DNA of 64,000 bases from Candidatus Latescibacterota bacterium. Its GTDB lineage: Bacteria > Latescibacterota > UBA2968. The stretch covers positions 2,432,001 to 2,496,000 of the forward strand of contig OZ240241.1 of the NCBI GenBank assembly GCA_965198115.1. The letters are read 5' to 3'. The stretch's first letter is position 1; each line of letters begins with the position of its first letter. Under the pieces are notes generated by a model. That model saw only the letters and a program-made list of their open reading frames with translations, was not told the DNA's origin and did not search any database. The position numbers were made by a program, and so were the translations under genes. Shown here one piece after another: positions 39,629 through 50,676 of this stretch.

Positions 39629-40897
39629 CTACGGAGCCGCAGCTTCTCCACGGTACGGAGCCTTTGCCAGCAGAAAAGCAACGATCGAGACGATGAGCAT
39701 TCCGACCGTGATGCTGAACATCAGATTGTAGCCGCCGGTAGAGTCGAAAATCATCCCCGCCATAATCGGACCCGCAATGACCGGAATGATGATCGCCGTT
39801 TGGGTCAAACCCATAATGCTACCGAATTGCCTCAGACCAAACATATCCGTGATCACCAGAGGTGTCAGAGCGCCAACACCACCCATACCCAGACCGAAAA
39901 CACCGATCCCGGCCCAGGTGACGGCCTGATCGCCTGAAATGATCATGATCGTGAGTCCAACCCCTTAGAGGATCAGTATCACCACGTAGGCCAGGCGTGC
40001 GGTGATCGTCTCGCTGAGACGACCGAAGATCAGCTTGCTAGTCATCGCGAAGAACGCGAGCAGCATCATCGCCCCGGAGGCCGCTGCAAGACTGAACCCG
40101 ATCTGCTGGAGATGAGGCACCATCTGGCTCACGACGCCGGTTCTCACGAACTGCTGCAGCGTCATACCCACCACCAGAAACCAGAACGTCGACGTTCGCA
40201 ACGCTTCTGACAGGACGAGGCCCTCGCTCGTCTTCAACTGCTGTCGCGAGTCGGATTCACTCGGTGCCCACCGCTTGCCTTGTTCTTTCAGGACATCCGC
40301 GTCCCTGTCTCGTATGACCAGAATCGACAGGACGACGAACCCCAACAGACCCGAAGCCAACACGACAAAGGTCCAGCGCCAACCCACCGTCGTGATCAAC
40401 GCAGCGACGATGGGAATGGCGAGCATGCTGCCAAAGTTGTTCCCTGCAGTCACCAACCCCATCATCCGACCACGAATCCGAGGAAACCACGTATTCACGA
40501 GGCGGCCCGCCGGCATCATCGTCGCCCCCGGTGTACCCGCGAACATCACGGCGCTATAGAGATAGAATTGCCAGAGTTCCGTCATCGACGCGCGAAGCAG
40601 GAACGCGATCGCAACGATTGCGATCGAGCCCGCCATCGTCCACCGGGCGCCAATCCGATCCATCAGATTTCCGACGAACGGAGACAGAAGCCCTGAGACC
40701 ACGCCGAACGTCAACGCCCCGTTGACCTCCGTGCGGGACCATCCAAACTCCTCTTCGAGAGGAAGGATGAACAGACTGAACGCAAATTGCGCGGTTCCCA
40801 GTACCGCCCCAATGGAAAGGGCTGATACACCAGCGATGTACCAGCCTCTGTAGATGCCCTTGGTGATGGGTGGGGGTTGCTCAGCGGTTCGAGATAT
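39629..40897 (-). pseudogene. MFS transporter with in-frame TAA and no canonical start
   Basis: The frame is open upstream (IYRGWYIAG...FGWSRTE) to ATA after GGAG. TAA at 39965-39967, then the same frame continues. Confidence 0.8.
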
Positions 40898-41238: not shown

Positions 41239-42975
41239 ATGGCTGAAGAACTCGGCACCCGCGATGTGCTCGAGCAGGTCGACGCCCGACTGAACAAAAT
41301 CGGGCTCTATCCGGGTTTCTCAACGGTGAAACTATAGAATGACAAGGTCATAGATCGTTCCCTACGCTTGGTTGTGTGTGTAGGACAATCAAAGCGAAGG
41401 GGGTGCGACCTATGACCGGGAGCAGATTACTATCGAAACTGCTGAGATTCAAGGGGTTCCGTGTTGTCAGCTGGTGGTTTGAGGGGAGAAGCTGTTTCGT
41501 CATCGCCGTAAAGCCACATAAGAATGGTTGTTGTTGTCCGGAGTGCGGCCGTCGAGGTAAAATCGTCCGCACAATGCCCCATCCGCGTCGGTGGCGTGAC
41601 ATTCCGGTGTGCGGGTGGAGGGTCTGGCTTCTCTACCATCCTCGGGAGATTCGGTGTCCTACCCACGGTCGTGTGGTCGAGGAGATTCCGTGGGCGGAGC
41701 GGTTCTCTCGGGTGACGTATCGCTTCGAGTATGCCATGCTGCGCTACTGCCAGACCATGACGCAGAAGGCGGCGTCCGAGTTGCTGCGCATCTCTGCCTC
41801 GACGCTGTCGGATCTCCTTCACCGATCCATCACGCGGCTTCGTGAAGGTCATCGTATCCGAGGGCTCAAAACCATCGGGATCGACGAGATCTCCTACGCC
41901 AAGCGTCACAGGTACGCCACGCTCGTTTACGATCTGGACCGCTCCTGCGTGGTGTGGGTTGGCCGCGGCAGGGCGCGTAAAACGATCGATCGGTTCTTCA
42001 CAGAGGCTCTCAGTCCCTACCAGAGATCCAAGATCGAGTGGGCCTGCTGCGACATGAGCGAAGCTTGAAGCTTACATCGGAGCCATCCAGGAACACTGTC
42101 CGAATGCCAAGCTGGTCCTCGATCGCTTTCACATCGTCAAGGCTCTCAATGCCGCCGTTGACGAGGTCCGTAAGGACCAGTGGCGTAAAGCTGCCCCGGA
42201 TGAGCGCAAAGCCATGAAGGGCCTCCGATGGCTCCTCTACCGGCACTCAGCGACACGCTCCAGAGGGGATACTCGGACACTCAAAGCACTGGAGAAGGCG
42301 AACTACCGAATCTATAGAGCCTGGAGACTCAAGGACGAGTTCGAGCAGTTCTGGGAATACAAAGCGCCCTGGGCTGCCGAACGCTTCCTGAAATGCTGGA
42401 CGACGTCCGCACTCAGAAGTCGACGTGAACCCCTGCGAAAGTTCGTCAGGACCCTGCGACAGCACTTCTTCGGCGTCCTCGCATTCGTGAACACGCGTCT
42501 TACCAACGCCATCGCCGAAGGCCTCAACCGAATCGTCCAAATCGTCAAGAACCGAGCCAGCGGATTCCGCACACTCGACGCATTCAACGATATGATCTTC
42601 CTTACCGTCGGAGACATAAACATCCCTGAGCAGATTCCGAAGAGGTTCCGCACACGCTAACCGCGCCCCCATGCCAGGAACCACGGCACCTTCACCCACT
42701 TCATCTCGTTGAGAGATCCGGATATAGCCCAAAATCGAGGCGGACATCCGGGAATTGCGATCGGGATTGAAACGCGCTTCGATAGGTTGGAGACGCGTTG
42801 GGGGCAGATTGATGCACGTTTCGAACGGATGGATTCCCGATTCGACCTTGCACATCAAGAGACGAACAATCTGCGTTCAGATATGGGCAAGGACATCCGT
42901 TGGCTTGTTGGACTCCTCTTTGCCGGGTGGCTGTCCCTGATGGCTACGATGGCTACTATCTGGACCAAGCTCTGA
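41239..42975 (+). pseudogene. Small coiled-coil protein with C-terminal TM, interrupted by ISL3
   Basis: MAEELGTRDVLEQVDARLNKI|EADIRELR, 1-nt shift, then IETRFDR...DIRWLVGLLFAGW. Paralogue of 46459. Confidence 0.85.
41303..42729 (+). mobile_element. ISL3-family IS copy 3, transposase broken by 7-bp duplication GAAGCTT (42060-42073)
   Basis: Near-identical to copy 1; exact 8-bp target duplication CAAAATCG. Confidence 0.95.
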
Positions 42976-44438: not shown

Positions 44439-45266
44439 ATGCGAGCCACATCCAGCTGGGCAGCCTTCGGGATCTGTCTCATCCTTGCTAATGGACAAGC
44501 CCGGGCAGGCGCCTGGACACAACCCAAGGATGGCTACTACTTCAAGGTCTCGACCAACTACCTCGACACCAGTTCGGACATCGATGCATCCGGCAGCAGG
44601 ATCCCGAAGGCCGGACAGGGCAACCTGAGGGACATCAGTACCTTCATATATATAGAGTACGGCCTGTCCGACAGACTGACGCTGGTGACGTCATTACCCT
44701 ACAGGAGACTAAGCGACCGACGTATCTTCGAAACAGGCATCGCCAGAGAGCGCCGGTCTGGATTCGGAGACACCGAAATTCGGGCACGATGGGCCATCTC
44801 GACCGGCCGAACGCCAATATCCTTCGCCGTGGGTACGAAACTTTCCCTCTGGCGACCCGAGGGGACGACCAGGGTGCCACTCAGCACGGGCGAGGCGGAC
44901 TTCGATACGCGAATACTCGTCGGCCGATCGTTGCACCCCCGCCCCGTATACACCACTGGCGAGTTGGGCTATCGCCTTCGGGGCGGTGCGTTCAGCGACG
45001 AGCTGTTTTATTCTTTCGAAGCCGGGATCTCAGCGAGAAGATTTTCGTTCAAGGGATTACTGAATGGCACGCAAACGCTGGGCGACTGTGAACCGATGGG
45101 CGAGGTTGGCCTGATCGGCGATCAGAACATCCTGAAGATCTCGCCTGGCGTGATCTACGCACTCAACGAGCGATTGGAGATCAGCCTCGAGCTGATTCAC
45201 ACGGCCACCGGGTGCAACACGACCGCGGGCAGTGTGTTGTCCCTCGGCATAGCGATTAAACCCTGA
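44439..45266 (+). CDS. Putative outer-membrane beta-barrel protein
   Basis: Signal peptide, AGAWTQPKDG, YIEYGLSDRLT, GFGD, alternating strands. Confidence 0.65.
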   Translation: MRATSSWAAFGICLILANGQARAGAWTQPKDGYYFKVSTNYLDTSSDIDASGSRIPKAGQGNLRDISTFIYIEYGLSDRLTLVTSLPYRRLSDRRIFETGIARERRSGFGDTEIRARWAISTGRTPISFAVGTKLSLWRPEGTTRVPLSTGEADFDTRILVGRSLHPRPVYTTGELGYRLRGGAFSDELFYSFEAGISARRFSFKGLLNGTQTLGDCEPMGEVGLIGDQNILKISPGVIYALNERLEISLELIHTATGCNTTAGSVLSLGIAIKP

Positions 45267-45274
45267 CAGAACTG

Positions 45275-46278
45275 ATGGCACTCATCAAGACAAAGAAGCG
45301 TTGGGAGATTCCGGAACGGAACGCGACGCCCGAATCCGTCTACCTCAACAGACGTCAGTTCCTGAGGGCCCTCGGCATTTCGACCGTGAGCGTGAGTCAG
45401 ATTCTCACGGCCTGCAGCTACGATCGCAGCTTCGAGTCCATCGACGGTTCTCCGATCTCTGGTTCGGTCGACACACCGGCTGACATTCTGGCGCTCTATC
45501 CGGCGTCCCGCAATTCGGCTTTCTCGACCCTCGACCGTGATCTGACCGCAGCCGACGTGGCAGGCACCTTCAACAACTTCTACGAGTTCAGTTCAGGAAA
45601 GACGCAGATTAGCGAACTGTCCAGGATGTTGTCCCTTTCGCCCTGGGCGGTGGAAGTCACCGGGCTCGTGCAAAACTCGATGACCCTGGACGTGAACGAC
45701 ATCCAGCGGAGATTCGAGCTGGAGGAGCGCCTGTATCGACACCGTTGCGTGGAAGCGTGGTCGATGGCCGTCCCCTGGACGGGTTTCCCGATGAAGGTGT
45801 TGATCGACGCGGTGCAGCCTGATTCGTCCGCCCAATACGTGCTGCTGACCACGTTCATTATGCCTGAGATTGCCCCGGGGCAGTTCAACAACCCCCAGTG
45901 GCCCTGGCCCTATCGGGAGGTCATTACAGTCGAGGAAGCGGCGAACGATCTGACGATGATCGCGACCGGCATTTACGGCAAACAGTTACCGCCCCAGCAC
46001 GGCGCGCCCATCAGATTGGTCGTTCCGTGGAAGTACGGATTCAAAAGCATCAAGTCGATCGTCCGGATCGAGTTCGTCGCGGAGAGGCCGGCCACGTTCT
46101 GGAACAGCCTCTTCCCCCCGCCTATGGGTTCACAGCGAACGTCAACCCCGACATCCCTCATCCCAATTGGCCTCAGAACACCGAGTATATAATCGGGACG
46201 AACGAGATTCGGCCGACCCTACCTTACAACGGCTATGGCGACTTCGTCGCTCATCTCTATCCGTCGGGCCCGGGCTGA
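45275..46278 (+). CDS. msrP: Protein-methionine-sulfoxide reductase catalytic subunit (frameshift in C-run ~46114-46119)
   Basis: [43 protein letters not shown]; second frame [16 protein letters not shown]...TLPYNGYG. Confidence 0.9.
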
Positions 46279-46458
46279 TACCTGGCTACACCTTTCAATA
46301 GCATCATTCGAACAGTTCTTGCAAGCTCGATCGCACGGAATGCACTGAAAGGACCGCTCTCGAGACGACACGGAGTTTACCACGTCCTTCCTATCACTTG
46401 AGGATGTTGTACAGCTGAGCTATCATTGGGAAACGACCAAGCCAAGCGTGGAGATCCG

Positions 46459-46689
46459 ATGTCAGAAGAACTCGGGACGAGGGACGTGCTGCAGCAACTC
46501 GATGCGCGGATGAACAGCCTGGAGAATCAAAATCGCTCAGAAATGGGGAGCTTGCGGTCCGAGATGGGAAGTATGAGGTCTGAGATGAACGCCCGCTTCG
46601 ATCGTGTGCATCAAGACTGGCGATGGCTCACGGGACTCTTCTTCGCGGGATGGATAACCGTGATCGCCTCCATCTGGCTCAAACCATAA
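46459..46689 (+). CDS. Small coiled-coil protein with heptad repeats and C-terminal TM
   Basis: GGAG RBS; RSEMGSL/RSEMGSM/RSEMNAR 21-nt repeats; WRWLTGLFFAGW. Confidence 0.85.
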   Translation: MSEELGTRDVLQQLDARMNSLENQNRSEMGSLRSEMGSMRSEMNARFDRVHQDWRWLTGLFFAGWITVIASIWLKP

Positions 46690-46697
46690 AATCAACC

Positions 46698-47705
46698 TCA
46701 CCGCCCCGCTCGACCCGGTCGCTTAATCTGATCGAAATCTTCCTGCAGGAACGGACACCCGAACGGCTCTTCATACGGACGGTACGGAACCATCGAGGCA
46801 ATTTCATCGATTCGCTCTAGGATCTCGGTGGGAAGCGGTCCATCCTCCGCGGCTCGAACATTCTGACGCAACTGATCGACGTTCCGCGGTCCCGTTAAGA
46901 CAGCCGACGCGTCGCCCGCATTACCCAGCACCCACCGCAACGACAGCTCGGGAATCGGTATCCCGACCTCATCGACCAGCTTGTAGAGCTGCTTCAGCTG
47001 TTCTCTCCTCGGCTTGTTCAGCCACCTGCCGTCCGCCGCCCCAACCTGCGCATCGAATCGATGGGCCAGCCATCCCTGTTGCGTCGGGGACGCCAGAAAG
47101 ATTCCCATATTCTGTCGCCTGGCTTCGGGCAGGAGCTCGATCTCGGCCTCTCGCCACAGCATACTGTAGTTGAACGCGGTCAGTACGACGTCGTAGAATC
47201 CCGTCGCCATGATGGGCACGATTTCGTAGGCCGTCGTCCCACCCAATCCTGAAAACCGAATGACCCCCTCGTCCTTCAACTCCTGTAGCAATTCGTGGAC
47301 TGGGCCATCGTAGGTGCGAAGATCGTCCCACCAGTCGAGCTGACCGGGCCGATCTGGCTCGTGAATCATCATAATGTCGATCGTGTCGCGATGGAGCAGC
47401 CTCCTGCTCTCGTCCACAATCGCGCGAAGATGCGTCTTGTCTTTGGGGTCGAAGTCGTCTGATCGGGGTCCCAGCTTCGTCGAAACGATACACGGCCGGG
47501 TCACATCTTTGAGGGCTTCGCCGACACCCGCCTCGCTGTCACCGTAGTCAGCCGATGTATCTAGCAAGTTCAGCCCCAACTCCAGCGCCTCGTGGACGAT
47601 GGCCTTCGCTCCCGCGTAACCGTCCTCACCACGGGTCGCGAAGGCCCCGCCGAGCGCCAACTCGCTCACTTCCAACCCGGTACGACCCAGGATTCGCTTC
47701 TTCAT
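46698..47705 (-). CDS. Aldo/keto reductase
   Basis: LGRTGLEVSELALG, LDTSADYGDSE, STK, IHEP. Confidence 0.92.
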   Translation of the reverse strand: MKKRILGRTGLEVSELALGGAFATRGEDGYAGAKAIVHEALELGLNLLDTSADYGDSEAGVGEALKDVTRPCIVSTKLGPRSDDFDPKDKTHLRAIVDESRRLLHRDTIDIMMIHEPDRPGQLDWWDDLRTYDGPVHELLQELKDEGVIRFSGLGGTTAYEIVPIMATGFYDVVLTAFNYSMLWREAEIELLPEARRQNMGIFLASPTQQGWLAHRFDAQVGAADGRWLNKPRREQLKQLYKLVDEVGIPIPELSLRWVLGNAGDASAVLTGPRNVDQLRQNVRAAEDGPLPTEILERIDEIASMVPYRPYEEPFGCPFLQEDFDQIKRPGRAGR

Positions 47706-47720
47706 ACACTCACCCTTCAG

Positions 47721-47963
47721 TCAAGCCAGGAGATCGATACGCGAACCCTGCAAATCGTTCGCCTTGCGTAGGACCAACGTGGAGACCGACGTGAGCACCT
47801 TGTCCCTCGCGAGACGCGTCGACAGGTCGGCGATTTCCCTTATCGTGGTCGAACCTTGGAGATCATCGTTCAACGATCGGAATGCCGCTTCCAACTCCCG
47901 GGTATTCTGAGCGAGGTGACGCTGAGCGTTCACCGCGGGTAGATTAGAGTTGATCGTCAGCAT
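47721..47963 (-). CDS. Mini flagellin-like protein (terminal segments only)
   Basis: MLTINSNLPAVNAQRHL resembles the flagellin N-terminus; KVLTSVSTLVLRKANDLQGSRIDLLA resembles the C-terminus. Confidence 0.7.
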   Translation of the reverse strand: MLTINSNLPAVNAQRHLAQNTRELEAAFRSLNDDLQGSTTIREIADLSTRLARDKVLTSVSTLVLRKANDLQGSRIDLLA

Positions 47964-48053
47964 AGGTGAAGGAAACCAACGCGCTGGTGTACTGGCAAGT
48001 CCTCAACACATCAGCCCTCGCTCATCAGGCCAACGGACCCCACCAGATCACAA

Positions 48054-49328
48054 TCAGTCGACCCTGTCGAGGTTCCCGGCCTCCCTCGGTGTGAAGAATC
48101 CATCCCTTTCCACCATCTTGCGACTCGGCACTTTCCACCGTAAGACACCCAGCCGACCGCTACCCCAGGAATCTACATCCTCGCCCTCTGGTACGGGGGA
48201 ATTGTCGTAGCACCTCAACCTCAGGCCACGCAAACGCCACGTTTCGCGACTGTCGTGGACTGTCACGATTGTATCGTCATCCAGGACGACGGAGCGCGCA
48301 TACTGACCACAGCGGTAGAGCTGGTAGACGGACCTGCTCCAGGTTTCGCCGCGATCGTAGCTCAGCATAAAACGCTGCCCGTATCGTCCAAACGTCAGGA
48401 TCAGGGTGTCGTCAGACAATCGCAGAATCGACCCGGACTGTTGGGCGGACGCCGTCACGATCCTCGGGGTCGCCCAGGTCTTTCCCCCGTCTGTACTCGA
48501 GCTGAATGCCGTGTGCTGGAACAGCTGACAGCCCACATCCGCGGGCGAACCGGTCCCGGAATACAGTCTCGCATCAGTCGCGAGATCGTCGGGATCTTCC
48601 GGCGTTTTGTTTCTCTGATACCGGATCGATGCGACGATCTCACCCGTCGGCAGCTCGAGCAGGTTCGGCTCAGGGGAGTGGTCCGTAAATCTTGAGAACC
48701 TCGACCACGTCCTGCCGTCGTCGTCGGAGCTGAAAATGAACGAGTGAAAAAAATCCTCGTTCTGAGGCACGGCTTTACCCGGACGAGCCCACGATTGGAC
48801 GACGAAGGGGACGACAATCCGTCCTTCGTGAAGCTGGATCGGCTTCGTCTGATCGCCGATGACATCGTAGGGCGAAGAATCGAACGGTCCGGTGGCCTGC
48901 CACGTGCGTCCTCGGTCTTCAGATCGGGTCGTCCACGCAAACGTGTGATGGCTTTCATCCTGCGTGAGCTCTTCGTGGTCCTCACCGTCGTTGGCTCTCA
49001 TCCCCCACACGACCAGAAGCGTGCCGCTGTCCGTGACACCGATCCCCGTGGGACTACAGGAGAGTCTCGTAAGACCTTCGGGTAATTCCGGACTCAGCGA
49101 GGGCGACGTGGCGAGAAGCGCCCAGTTCCGACCCGAATCCTTGCTGTGGTAGACCTGGCCTTCGGTTCCCGCCGTGAACAGTTCCTGATCGGGACCCCCT
49201 GCGACAGTCGGTTGGAAGATCGGACTCAACCCCGTATCGATCTGTTCACACGGCCACTCGACCGGCGGCTGCCTGAACACTTCGAACACCTCGGGATGAA
49301 GGTCTGCCCACGTACGAATGTGCGTCAT
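48054..49328 (-). CDS. BNR-repeat/sialidase-family protein
   Basis: SKDSGRNW, SEDRGRTW, SDDDGRTW, STDGGKTW, SYDRGETW. Confidence 0.85.
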   Translation of the reverse strand: MTHIRTWADLHPEVFEVFRQPPVEWPCEQIDTGLSPIFQPTVAGGPDQELFTAGTEGQVYHSKDSGRNWALLATSPSLSPELPEGLTRLSCSPTGIGVTDSGTLLVVWGMRANDGEDHEELTQDESHHTFAWTTRSEDRGRTWQATGPFDSSPYDVIGDQTKPIQLHEGRIVVPFVVQSWARPGKAVPQNEDFFHSFIFSSDDDGRTWSRFSRFTDHSPEPNLLELPTGEIVASIRYQRNKTPEDPDDLATDARLYSGTGSPADVGCQLFQHTAFSSSTDGGKTWATPRIVTASAQQSGSILRLSDDTLILTFGRYGQRFMLSYDRGETWSRSVYQLYRCGQYARSVVLDDDTIVTVHDSRETWRLRGLRLRCYDNSPVPEGEDVDSWGSGRLGVLRWKVPSRKMVERDGFFTPREAGNLDRVD

Positions 49329-49403
49329 TGGGTCCTCGAGCGGATGCTGAAGAGACTGGTGAGCGATCATACAGTCGTGGGCTCCTGCCCGCGACCGTTG
49401 TAG

Positions 49404-49661
49404 AACAACGCGTTACGCTCGCCCCCGTGCTCCGCACGGGGGCTCTATACCCATCGCGGAATGTGTAGATTTGTCATCCCGGCAGGCCTCAGGCAGGGGG
49501 TCGTCCTTTGGTCTTTCTTCAAGGATCCCTTCAGAACACGTCCCAGGCGAAGACCTTGTTTCGAAGTGTCTGGATCATGACTTATAATCCCCTACTGACA
49601 CAACCTGGTTCTTTTGCGTAAAACAACACACTGCGCTCGTCCCCGTGCTCTGCACGGGGAC
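49404..49661. repeat. Two ~40-bp direct repeats each ending in a GC hairpin
   Basis: AACAAC....T.CGCTCG.CCCCGTGCTC.GCACGGGG at 49404-49443 and 49622-49661. Confidence 0.75.
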
Positions 49662-49677
49662 GCAGAGGGGCAATAGT

Positions 49678-50676
49678 ATGAGCGTGTATGAAGATGCAAT
49701 CGTGATCGATAGTCTGAACGTGAGCAACTGGGAAAGCCCCGCTGTGTTTCACGCTATGCACACGGGGGGCGTGACGGCAACCAACGTCACAGTCGCAACT
49801 TGGGAAAACTTCATTGAGACGATGGATCACCTGGCGGCGTGGCCCAGCCGATTCGACGACCACAAAGACATTCTGCTTCAGGTAAGATCGACAGCCGACA
49901 TCCGAAGGGCCAAAGAAGATGGCCGCGTCGGAATCATCCTCGGGTTCCAGAATGCCTCCCCCATCGAGAACGATCTGGACCGGCTCGCCCTCTTTCACGA
50001 CCTGGGGGTGCGGATCATCCAGCTGACCTTTCACGAACGCAATCTGCTCGGCAATGGCTGCTACGAACGTGGCGACGATGGGCTCAGCAACTTCGGTCTG
50101 GATGCGGTGCGCGAAATGAACAGGATGGGCATCGTCATCGACCTCTCCCACGTCGGCGTCCAGTCCACGCTCGATGCGATCGAGCATTCCGAGCAACCGG
50201 TCGCGGTGACCCACGCGAATTGCCGGGATTTCCACGAAAGCCCCCGCAACAAAACCGACGAGGCTCTGAAGCGGGTGGCCGAGAAGGGTGGTGTCATCGG
50301 GGCAACGGCGATCGGTTCGTTTCTTCCAACGCAGTTTGAATCCTCGCTGGATGATTACATAGACGCGATCGACGATATGGTCGAGCGCGTAGGAATCGAT
50401 CACGTCGGCTTCGGCACGGACTTCACACAGGATCAGCCGAAGCCGTTCTGGCGCTACATCGGGTCACAGCAGGGCACGAAGTTTCCGGCCACCTTTACTA
50501 ATCCTTTCGTAGAGTATGACGAAGTGTCTCTCTACCCCACGGATCTGGAGACACCCGATAAACTACCCAACCTCGGGAGGGCGCTTACCGCCAGGGGATA
50601 CGGACCTGAGGATGTATTGAAGATTCTAGGCGGAAACTGGCTCAGGCTGTTCGCACAGGTTTGGAGCGAAGCCTGA
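49678..50676 (+). CDS. Membrane dipeptidase (M19) family
   Basis: GFQN, IDLSHVG, THAN, RNKTD, GFGTDF, GGNWLR. Confidence 0.92.
   Translation: MSVYEDAIVIDSLNVSNWESPAVFHAMHTGGVTATNVTVATWENFIETMDHLAAWPSRFDDHKDILLQVRSTADIRRAKEDGRVGIILGFQNASPIENDLDRLALFHDLGVRIIQLTFHERNLLGNGCYERGDDGLSNFGLDAVREMNRMGIVIDLSHVGVQSTLDAIEHSEQPVAVTHANCRDFHESPRNKTDEALKRVAEKGGVIGATAIGSFLPTQFESSLDDYIDAIDDMVERVGIDHVGFGTDFTQDQPKPFWRYIGSQQGTKFPATFTNPFVEYDEVSLYPTDLETPDKLPNLGRALTARGYGPEDVLKILGGNWLRLFAQVWSEA

Follow-up and report, generated by a model that had tools for sequence, protein, structure and literature searches.

The genome of a Candidatus Latescibacterota bacterium carries a short gene whose 80-aa product, P0001, resembles the two ends of a flagellin joined almost directly to each other. 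The gene, stop codon included, occupies positions 47721..47963 on the minus strand of the 64,000-nucleotide stretch analysed here (the window). With an open frame, 19 homologous clusters, the mark of purifying selection and agreement with the contigs of public runs, it is almost certainly a real, selected gene, and its product was probably derived from a flagellin by one old internal deletion. In what follows, G000 is the genome of the window, while G070 and G067 are related genomes of the same family (f1).

The gene and its surroundings

A sequence-only reading of the window had described an 80-aa frame with flagellin-like termini, and this 80-codon open frame was confirmed at 47721-47963, on the minus strand, which that reading had not given. 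Residues 1-35 (47859..47963, minus) form an N-terminal D0-like helix that ends where the flagellin spoke motif would begin, as indicated by hhalign (95.6-98%), NCBIfam and a predicted helix over residues 7-35. Residues 36-42 (47838..47858, minus), delimited by alignment, form a variable linker that stands where a flagellin has its spokes and the whole of D1-D3, and show the highest pN of the three regions. Residues 43-80 (47724..47837, minus) form a C-terminal D0-like helix whose core, LVLRKA, is invariant and whose tail, IDxxA, is YjfB-like, supported by hhalign and by a gap-free register with the last 38 flagellin residues. The linker had been put at about 10 aa, which agrees with the roughly 7-11 aa of P0001 but not with the 71-74-aa members of the family, where it measures about 4-6 aa.

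The ATG of an aldo/keto reductase gene (PF00248, E 5.6e-38) lies 15 bp downstream of the stop of the short gene, as had been noticed, and a 90-bp gap separates the short gene from a BNR-repeat gene upstream, all three genes being on a common strand in the window. No SD precedes the ATG of the short gene, again as described before, no sigma70 promoter or terminator was found on its strand, and an Rfam scan of 46000-50000 gave no match. The location outside any flagellar locus also holds, the nearest flagellin gene being about 29 kb away, beyond the window. Positions 45200-48043 are covered by contigs of the public runs X1 and X2, which are possibly the source sample, with 0 differences and 0 gaps.

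Elsewhere in the window, 42709-42975 (+) and 46426-46689 (+) encode two paralogues of 87-88 aa, both coiled-coil proteins that end in a hydrophobic helix and match nothing in Pfam; the genome has six related copies. A molybdopterin oxidoreductase gene at 45275-46278 (+), presumably MsrP-like, is apparently frameshifted near 46150, where the run contigs show the same letters.

Family, range and selection

Starting from P0001 alone, a single-sequence search found four homologues of 73-92 aa. A profile search, for which the candidates were proteins of 40-161 aa only, found 19 homologous clusters of 69-92 aa (E <= 8e-19), the next match coming only at E 0.3; some members originate from Tara. When 1.84 billion representative proteins of all lengths were searched, two family members were followed by nine weaker matches, eight of them to the N-half, and among the four of these that we inspected two were full flagellins, one starts like the short family and one was unrelated.

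The family is narrow in range. Of the 168 genomes of the phylum that were searched, three carry the short gene (G000, G070 and G067), all in the window's family, and the other matches are full-length flagellins; the 137 genomes of the phylum outside that family hold no short copy. Flagellins occur in 10 of the 31 genomes of the family and FlhA in nine, and the short gene is found in 3 of the 10 flagellin-bearing genomes and in none of the 21 flagellin-free ones (0/21 for the genomes of the flagellin-free genus). The seven flagellin-bearing genomes without it are 82-98% complete. Among the genomes searched, the short gene is thus found only in flagellin-bearing ones, although this co-occurrence reflects related genomes and not independent events. 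The carriers have one FliS, one FliW and 6-9 Flagellin_N matches.

Synonymous changes far exceed replacements (pS 0.62-0.79, pN 0.17-0.31, p <= 2e-7 in nine of ten pairs), the tenth pair being two near-identical strains (p 0.29). Between G000 and G070 the short gene has a dS of 1.29, against 0.59-2.09 for 13 other orthologues, and a dN/dS of 0.23, the highest of 14 genes (0.03-0.17 for the others, 0.07-0.09 for the flagellins); with a dS typical of the genome and this dN/dS, the gene is orthologous, selected and rather fast-evolving. The C-half is the best-conserved part, the INTN start is eroded in 7 of the 19 members, and the indels are all in frame, with 3-7 residues in the linker. In G000 the gene shows two private changes, compared with 0-4 in the other seven sequences, and hence no excess. 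The homologue and dN/dS checks proposed with the sequence-only reading therefore came out on the side of a conserved gene of stable length (19 clusters of 69-92 aa, under purifying selection).

A decaying remnant of a flagellin gene might be suspected in a genome as rich in IS (262 ISL3 matches) and in broken flagellar genes as G000, but it is hardly credible given that synonymous sites are near saturation, that only in-frame indels occur, that the frames are intact in all 19 clusters and that there is no DNA likeness to flagellin genes. Decay is refuted for the family, as the earlier reading had anticipated, and may hold only for the present state in G000. A recent internal deletion, which that reading had named as a possible refutation, is ruled out by the lack of a DNA match to any G000 flagellin gene, and there is no near-identity to flagellin ends either, since only 11-14 of the last 38 residues are identical to those of local flagellins, compared with 26-37 between flagellin paralogues.

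The evolutionary rates also bear on whether the protein might polymerise by itself into a thin tube made of D0 alone, like a type III needle subunit. Type III needle subunits are about 80 aa long, and the short protein resembles them in size and in its predicted two-helix layout. Needle, rod and flagellin are structurally related (PMC8812861, in excerpt). However, the dN/dS of 0.23 is the highest of the 14 genes and three times that of the flagellins, the N-terminus and linker are variable, and the gene has no SD or strong promoter for mass production, so that we consider such a tube very improbable.

Flagellin likeness of the two halves

The standard Pfam models do not call the protein a flagellin. 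The suggested check with Flagellin_N and Flagellin_C gave no match for P0001 at E <= 1, and over the 19 members it gave one match to Flagellin_N (12.8 bits) and four to Flagellin_C (14-15 bits), none of which reaches the Pfam cut-offs (26.6 and 23 bits, respectively; 27 bits for YjfB). NCBIfam flagellin matches residues 1-32 of P0001 weakly (E 5e-4). With hhalign, the ends of 33 flagellins gave 98% for the N-half and 93% for the C-half, whereas nine local flagellins found by Pfam alone gave 95.6 and 64%, respectively, the larger set including seven proteins and several loci first found with the query itself. The earlier description of a protein with D0-like ends only is thus upheld by hhalign, with both ends flagellin-like and no D1, but not by the standard Pfam HMMs.

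We compared both halves with alignments of flagellin, FlgL, rod/hook, short rod-like and YjfB ends. Across these five end sets the N-half matches flagellin only and the C-half matches flagellin best by hhalign. HMM scores on flagellin ends were 27-41 bits for the N-half and 14-22 bits for the C-half, where shuffled sequences reached at most 14.2 and 8.8, respectively; FlgL and rod/hook ends gave nothing above the shuffles. Origins from rod/hook, FlgL or short Flg_bbr_C proteins were rejected (hhalign below 5% for both halves, scores within shuffles). When a 20-row family profile was compared with the PDB, 14 of the 19 matches were flagellin chains, with a best E of 4e-6.

The last 38 residues align without a gap to the flagellin C-terminus, with 11-14 identities and a shuffle p <= 0.0025 in eight of eight members. 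What is kept of flagellin is the stretch from residue 1 to about 35 and the final 38 residues, which run gap-free up to the stop, in proteins of 69-92 aa compared with 384-399 aa for local flagellins; the spoke motifs SSG.RIN or R.D.D occur in none of the 19 members, and D1-D3 are wholly absent. A likeness of 'STTIRE' to the flagellin 'SSIRD' was dismissed as off-register and not conserved. In the tail of the C-half, 9 of 10 large hydrophobic positions are retained, while the E, the four Q, the AQ of AQAN, the P and the S that are invariant in all nine local flagellins are replaced in 18 of the 18 members scored (P0028 was left out because of an internal repeat). Several of the replaced positions now carry invariant charged residues (R66, K67 and D77), and the equivalents of Hag Q297 and V299, in end-anchored numbering, are changed in 18/18 members scored.

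AlphaFold monomer models show two helices, at 7/8-35/37 and 41/42-79, at low confidence (pLDDT 61-62, pTM 0.28-0.31), and Foldseek with these models returned nothing at E <= 0.001. Lacking D1 and scoring below the Pfam cut-offs, the protein stands outside flagellin family membership, yet it is best read as a flagellin derivative.

Comparison with YjfB

P0001 has a weak Pfam match to YjfB (E 7.7e-4), and 18 of the 19 members match this model (PF14070) at 12.7-19.9 bits on positions 1-34 of its 57, compared with four for Flagellin_C. The short protein could accordingly be a chimera of, or a functional stand-in for, YjfB, in which a flagellin N-helix joined to a shortened YjfB-type protein would do the job of YjfB in flagellated cells. 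Its last 8 residues favour this history, scoring 9.0 bits on the YjfB tail profile versus 2.7 on flagellin (shuffled mean -6.1) and carrying the YjfB-type tail (G)xxIDxxA; five of the six next-best short proteins after the family are YjfB; and YjfB itself is present in 21 of 76 genomes of a sister family and in none of the 30 other genomes of the window's family. However, every YjfB score falls under the cut-off of 27 bits, the 30-residue core of the C-half scores 26 bits on flagellin versus 12.5 on YjfB of the same phylum, and hhalign gives the C-half 93% with flagellin versus 4-5% with YjfB, which reaches 84% only when YjfBs picked with the query are added. The position-specific scores were obtained with 33 flagellins and the usable YjfBs (102 of 120), mostly from this phylum. 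The N-half, moreover, matches flagellin and not YjfB, a protein of about 60-70 aa without a flagellin-type N-terminal helix.

The chimera requires both a fusion and the loss of about 20 residues, whereas a flagellin needs a single deletion and already ends at the same residue; the latter is the simpler history, and we regard the chimera or stand-in as unlikely. Convergence may be another route to the YjfB-like tail. The two proteins are alike in their small size, in the LVLRKA.D.Q core and IDxxA tail, and in sharing the register of the flagellin tail; they differ in that the short protein adds a flagellin-type N-helix, retains nothing of the second half of YjfB but its tail and does not reach the cut-off.

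The first half of YjfB (L083-L102, P0029-P0034) is itself in register with the flagellin C-terminal D0 helix, and one YjfB matches Flagellin_C at E 0.84; the profile comparison of YjfB with the flagellin C-end was not significant (hhalign 2.7%).

Upstream motif and genomic sites

A motif, TGT-N7-TTGC(C/G)A-N15-GGTTTC, lies upstream of the short gene at 47972..48008 (minus), its TTGC(C/G)A hexamer 35 nt before the ATG. It is found at identical offsets in G000, locus L026 and G070, though the gene has different neighbours in G000, which matches 16 of the 23 upstream positions common to L026 and G070 (p 2.5e-5). In G067 the motif is absent at that offset, and the start there overlaps the stop of the upstream gene. 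We infer a candidate promoter of a leaderless or short-leader mRNA. As a regulon marker the motif was rejected: it occurs exactly three times in the genome, and position -35 relative to ATGs shows no enrichment for it. In four members, the 260 nt upstream were found to contain no sigma28 or sigma54 site other than a single loose match to GG-N10-TGC, which falls within the gene upstream at L026. Local flagellin genes mostly carry GGAG SDs, and several of them show sigma54 or TAAA/TCGATA-type sites.

In the loci inspected the short gene never lies beside flagellar genes. In G000 it is flanked by the BNR and reductase genes; in G070 and L026 the flanking genes encode a phosphoesterase-like protein and a GFO oxidoreductase, and in G067 they encode an NHL-repeat protein and an amidase. 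The phosphoesterase-like/GFO pair is adjacent without the short gene in G000, and so is the NHL-repeat/amidase pair in G000 and G070; the short gene has thus moved at least twice. A link to the aldo/keto reductase was rejected, given the different neighbours at three sites.

The aldo/keto reductase gene of G070 follows an MFS gene (L157), which lies directly upstream of it, while in the window a similar MFS gene (39965-40714, minus) is found 6 kb downstream of the reductase; the different placement points to local rearrangement. In G000, the counterpart of the GFO oxidoreductase found after the short gene in G070 is broken into two pieces, 18 kb apart and on opposite strands (G000:C1:2877090-2896319).

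Decay of the flagellar system in G000

The flagellar system of G000 is in recent decay. FlhA is absent, the fliK-to-flhF block is missing between motE and flhG (G000:C1:4513174-4526086), and of 22 flagellar genes of G070 tested in G000, six have no close match and six are split across frames. Frameshifts affect fliF, fliA, fliD, flgK, flgL and several flagellins (loci L001-L016, L043 and L143). The fliS gene lacks its first 18 codons and adjoins an IS, as does one fliC; removal of residues 2-18 from the FliS of B. subtilis has the effect of a null mutation (PMC6070490, in excerpt). G070, a congener of G000, and G067 have export and motor genes, one FliS and one FliW. For one 11.5-kb stretch, assembly error was rejected as a cause of the broken genes, since one contig of a run that is possibly the source sample matches it exactly and so confirms the deletion and frameshifts there. 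The genome check asked for flagellin, fliS and export genes consequently had a mixed outcome, with flagellin genes present but FlhA absent and fliS cut at its 5' end. With these two losses, the export or chaperone role proposed earlier cannot operate in G000 at present, and the short gene may be a remnant there, its partners being broken.

Intact in G000 are the short gene, fliW, flgB, fliE and one flagellin, so the survival of a gene of 243 bp says little. The same observation bears on a recruitment to a job unrelated to flagella, in which a small basic helical hairpin would have found a new partner. The persistence of an intact gene beside a ruined flagellar system would fit such a job, as would the metabolic genes around it at three sites, its own upstream motif and the new invariant charged residues. 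We nevertheless judge it improbable: fliW, flgB and fliE survive as well, survival being expected at this length, and no flagellin-free genome carries the gene (0/21 in the family, and no short copy in the other 137 genomes of the phylum).

G000 has undergone an IS expansion, with 262 tblastn matches to the ISL3 transposase of the window, whose own copy (41376-42660) is split into two ORFs; its genome measures 8.4 Mb versus 5.6 Mb for G070. The flagellated relatives G062-G070 have 5-8 Flagellin_N matches each, mostly flagellins of about 385-400 aa, and their flagellin genes often stand in divergent pairs with mixed sigma28-like and sigma54 sites.

A possible role as a FliS mimic

As a tentative reading, which we regard as a serious possibility, the short protein may be a cytoplasmic mimic of flagellin that occupies FliS and damps flagellin export. 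Without D1 it would make none of the outer-tube contacts of a normal filament; it would stay in the cytoplasm and not be exported, and its C-half would bind FliS in place of the flagellin tail. Occupation of FliS would leave less of it free and so damp flagellin export, and a non-flagellar promoter of its own would allow another signal to throttle 5-8 flagellin paralogues via a single FliS. The level of free FliS sets flagellin export and FlgM secretion.

According to excerpts of published work, flagellin wraps its C-terminal 40 residues around FliS (PMC7248283), the export of flagellin is accelerated by FliS while FlgM is restrained by it (PMC8527033), and residues 1-47 of FliC, or 26-47 in some reports, are the export signal (PMC6337784). 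FliS also contacts flagellin D1, FliW protects Hag residues 11-34, 50-72 and 240-260, and Q297, V299 and L300 of B. subtilis Hag matter for filament formation, Q297 and V299 facing away from FliS (PMC6070490, in excerpt). The short protein loses D1, most of FliC 26-47, two of the three FliW patches and the equivalents of Q297 and V299, while its C-half keeps the length and register of the 40 FliS-bound residues as well as the hydrophobic face. It is this retention of the FliS-wrapped length and face, together with the loss of D1 and most of 26-47, that favours a cytoplasmic mimic. The sequence-only reading had assumed that the N-terminal export signal was carried over, which does not hold for the stretch most often cited, FliC 26-47, since it is mostly deleted.

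Several observations weigh against a mimic. As the AQ of AQAN, all four Gln and the Pro are lost, binding to FliS cannot be assumed; the hydrophobic pattern fits an internal hairpin of the N- and C-helices just as well, and the new invariant R, K and D may serve another partner. The D1 that FliS contacts is absent, and 7 of the 10 genomes with flagellin in the family lack the gene. Unlike several flagellin genes, it has neither a sigma28 nor a sigma54 motif, and it is intact in G000 despite the loss of FlhA and of a full FliS.

The short protein might instead be exported via the flagellum and act outside, either as a terminator or plug at the filament tip, which would add to the inner D0 tube and be unable to lengthen the outer tube of D1, or as a protein that is secreted without entering the filament, as are FlaC and the Vibrio proteins FlaE/F. 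The flagellin-like N-terminus and the two predicted D0 helices suit this alternative, and secreted non-filament homologues of flagellin are known (PMC4863622, PMC6692518, both in excerpt). Yet FlaC keeps both conserved end regions, far more than D0 (PMC8306008, in excerpt), and in the short family the 26-47 segment is mostly gone, the N-terminal motif is eroded in 7 of 19 members, no late flagellar promoter is present and the polar tail residues are rewritten, all of which makes export rather unlikely.

Comparison with known proteins and significance

With FliC/Hag (PF00669 and PF00700) the short protein shares the INTN...NAQR.L N-helix, the last 38 residues in register, the hydrophobic pattern and the best profile match; it differs in lacking the spokes, D1-D3, the invariant Gln, Pro and AQAN, a flagellar promoter and an SD. 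The conserved end regions of FlaC and of FlaE/FlaF include D1. The nearest described analogues are these Campylobacter (FlaC) and Vibrio (FlaE/FlaF) proteins, flagellin derivatives outside the filament (PMC8306008, PMC4863622, PMC6692518, all in excerpt), FlaC being without the central domain and binding TLR5 (PMC8306008); they are, however, secreted with their end regions kept, whereas the short protein retains D0 only. FlgM and HP1076 of H. pylori are non-flagellin FliS binders that tune export (PMC8527033, PMC7248283, in excerpt), and the short protein would be a putative further one, although acting by copying the client's own tail; Pfam gave no match of the short family to FlgM or HP1076.

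Stand-alone Flg_bb_rod/Flg_bbr_C proteins are likewise axial proteins reduced to their ends, but the same genomes hold a separate gene of this kind, encoding 113-122 aa, and the short locus is not among the PF06429 matches. That gene (G000:C1:1161660-1162004, L138:1161-1505, plus strand; also L133-L135) is conserved in the family with a dN/dS of 0.15, and in G000 a TTGACA-16-TATTTT site precedes its ATG by 9 nt. The ESM Atlas contains unnamed clusters of 70-83 aa (61-115 members) from Acidobacteriota, Verrucomicrobiota and Pseudomonadota that score 0.90-0.94 against the short family, with Flg_bbr_C in 12-28% of their members; they may represent a wider class of end-only axial proteins.

The term 'mini-flagellin' is reportedly used in print for engineered chimeras. 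It has also served for a model of EspA (PMC1084347, in excerpt). We found no report of a natural D0-only flagellin in the literature searched, which comprised the main text of papers, few of them from subscription journals; nothing was found on the flagellins studied here, and the excerpted text of PMC7018530 contains nothing on short flagellin forms.

Known non-filament homologues keep much of the flagellin body, and a selected protein of two D0 helices separates the chaperone and inner-tube functions from filament building. On a broader and unlikely view, it would belong to an unrecognised, repeatedly evolved class of D0-only flagellins that control traffic by mimicry or form a thin needle-like tube or filament plug from one hairpin, with YjfB perhaps a derivative of the flagellin tail. 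If true, a single-hairpin tube or plug would connect, in a naturally occurring protein, the inner tube of the flagellum with the needles of type III systems. Being half-way similar to YjfB, the short protein suggests a hypothesis that can be tested for that uncharacterised family, and it is a ready reagent for asking whether FliS can be tuned by mimicry of its client and whether D0 by itself suffices for polymerisation or for capping a filament.
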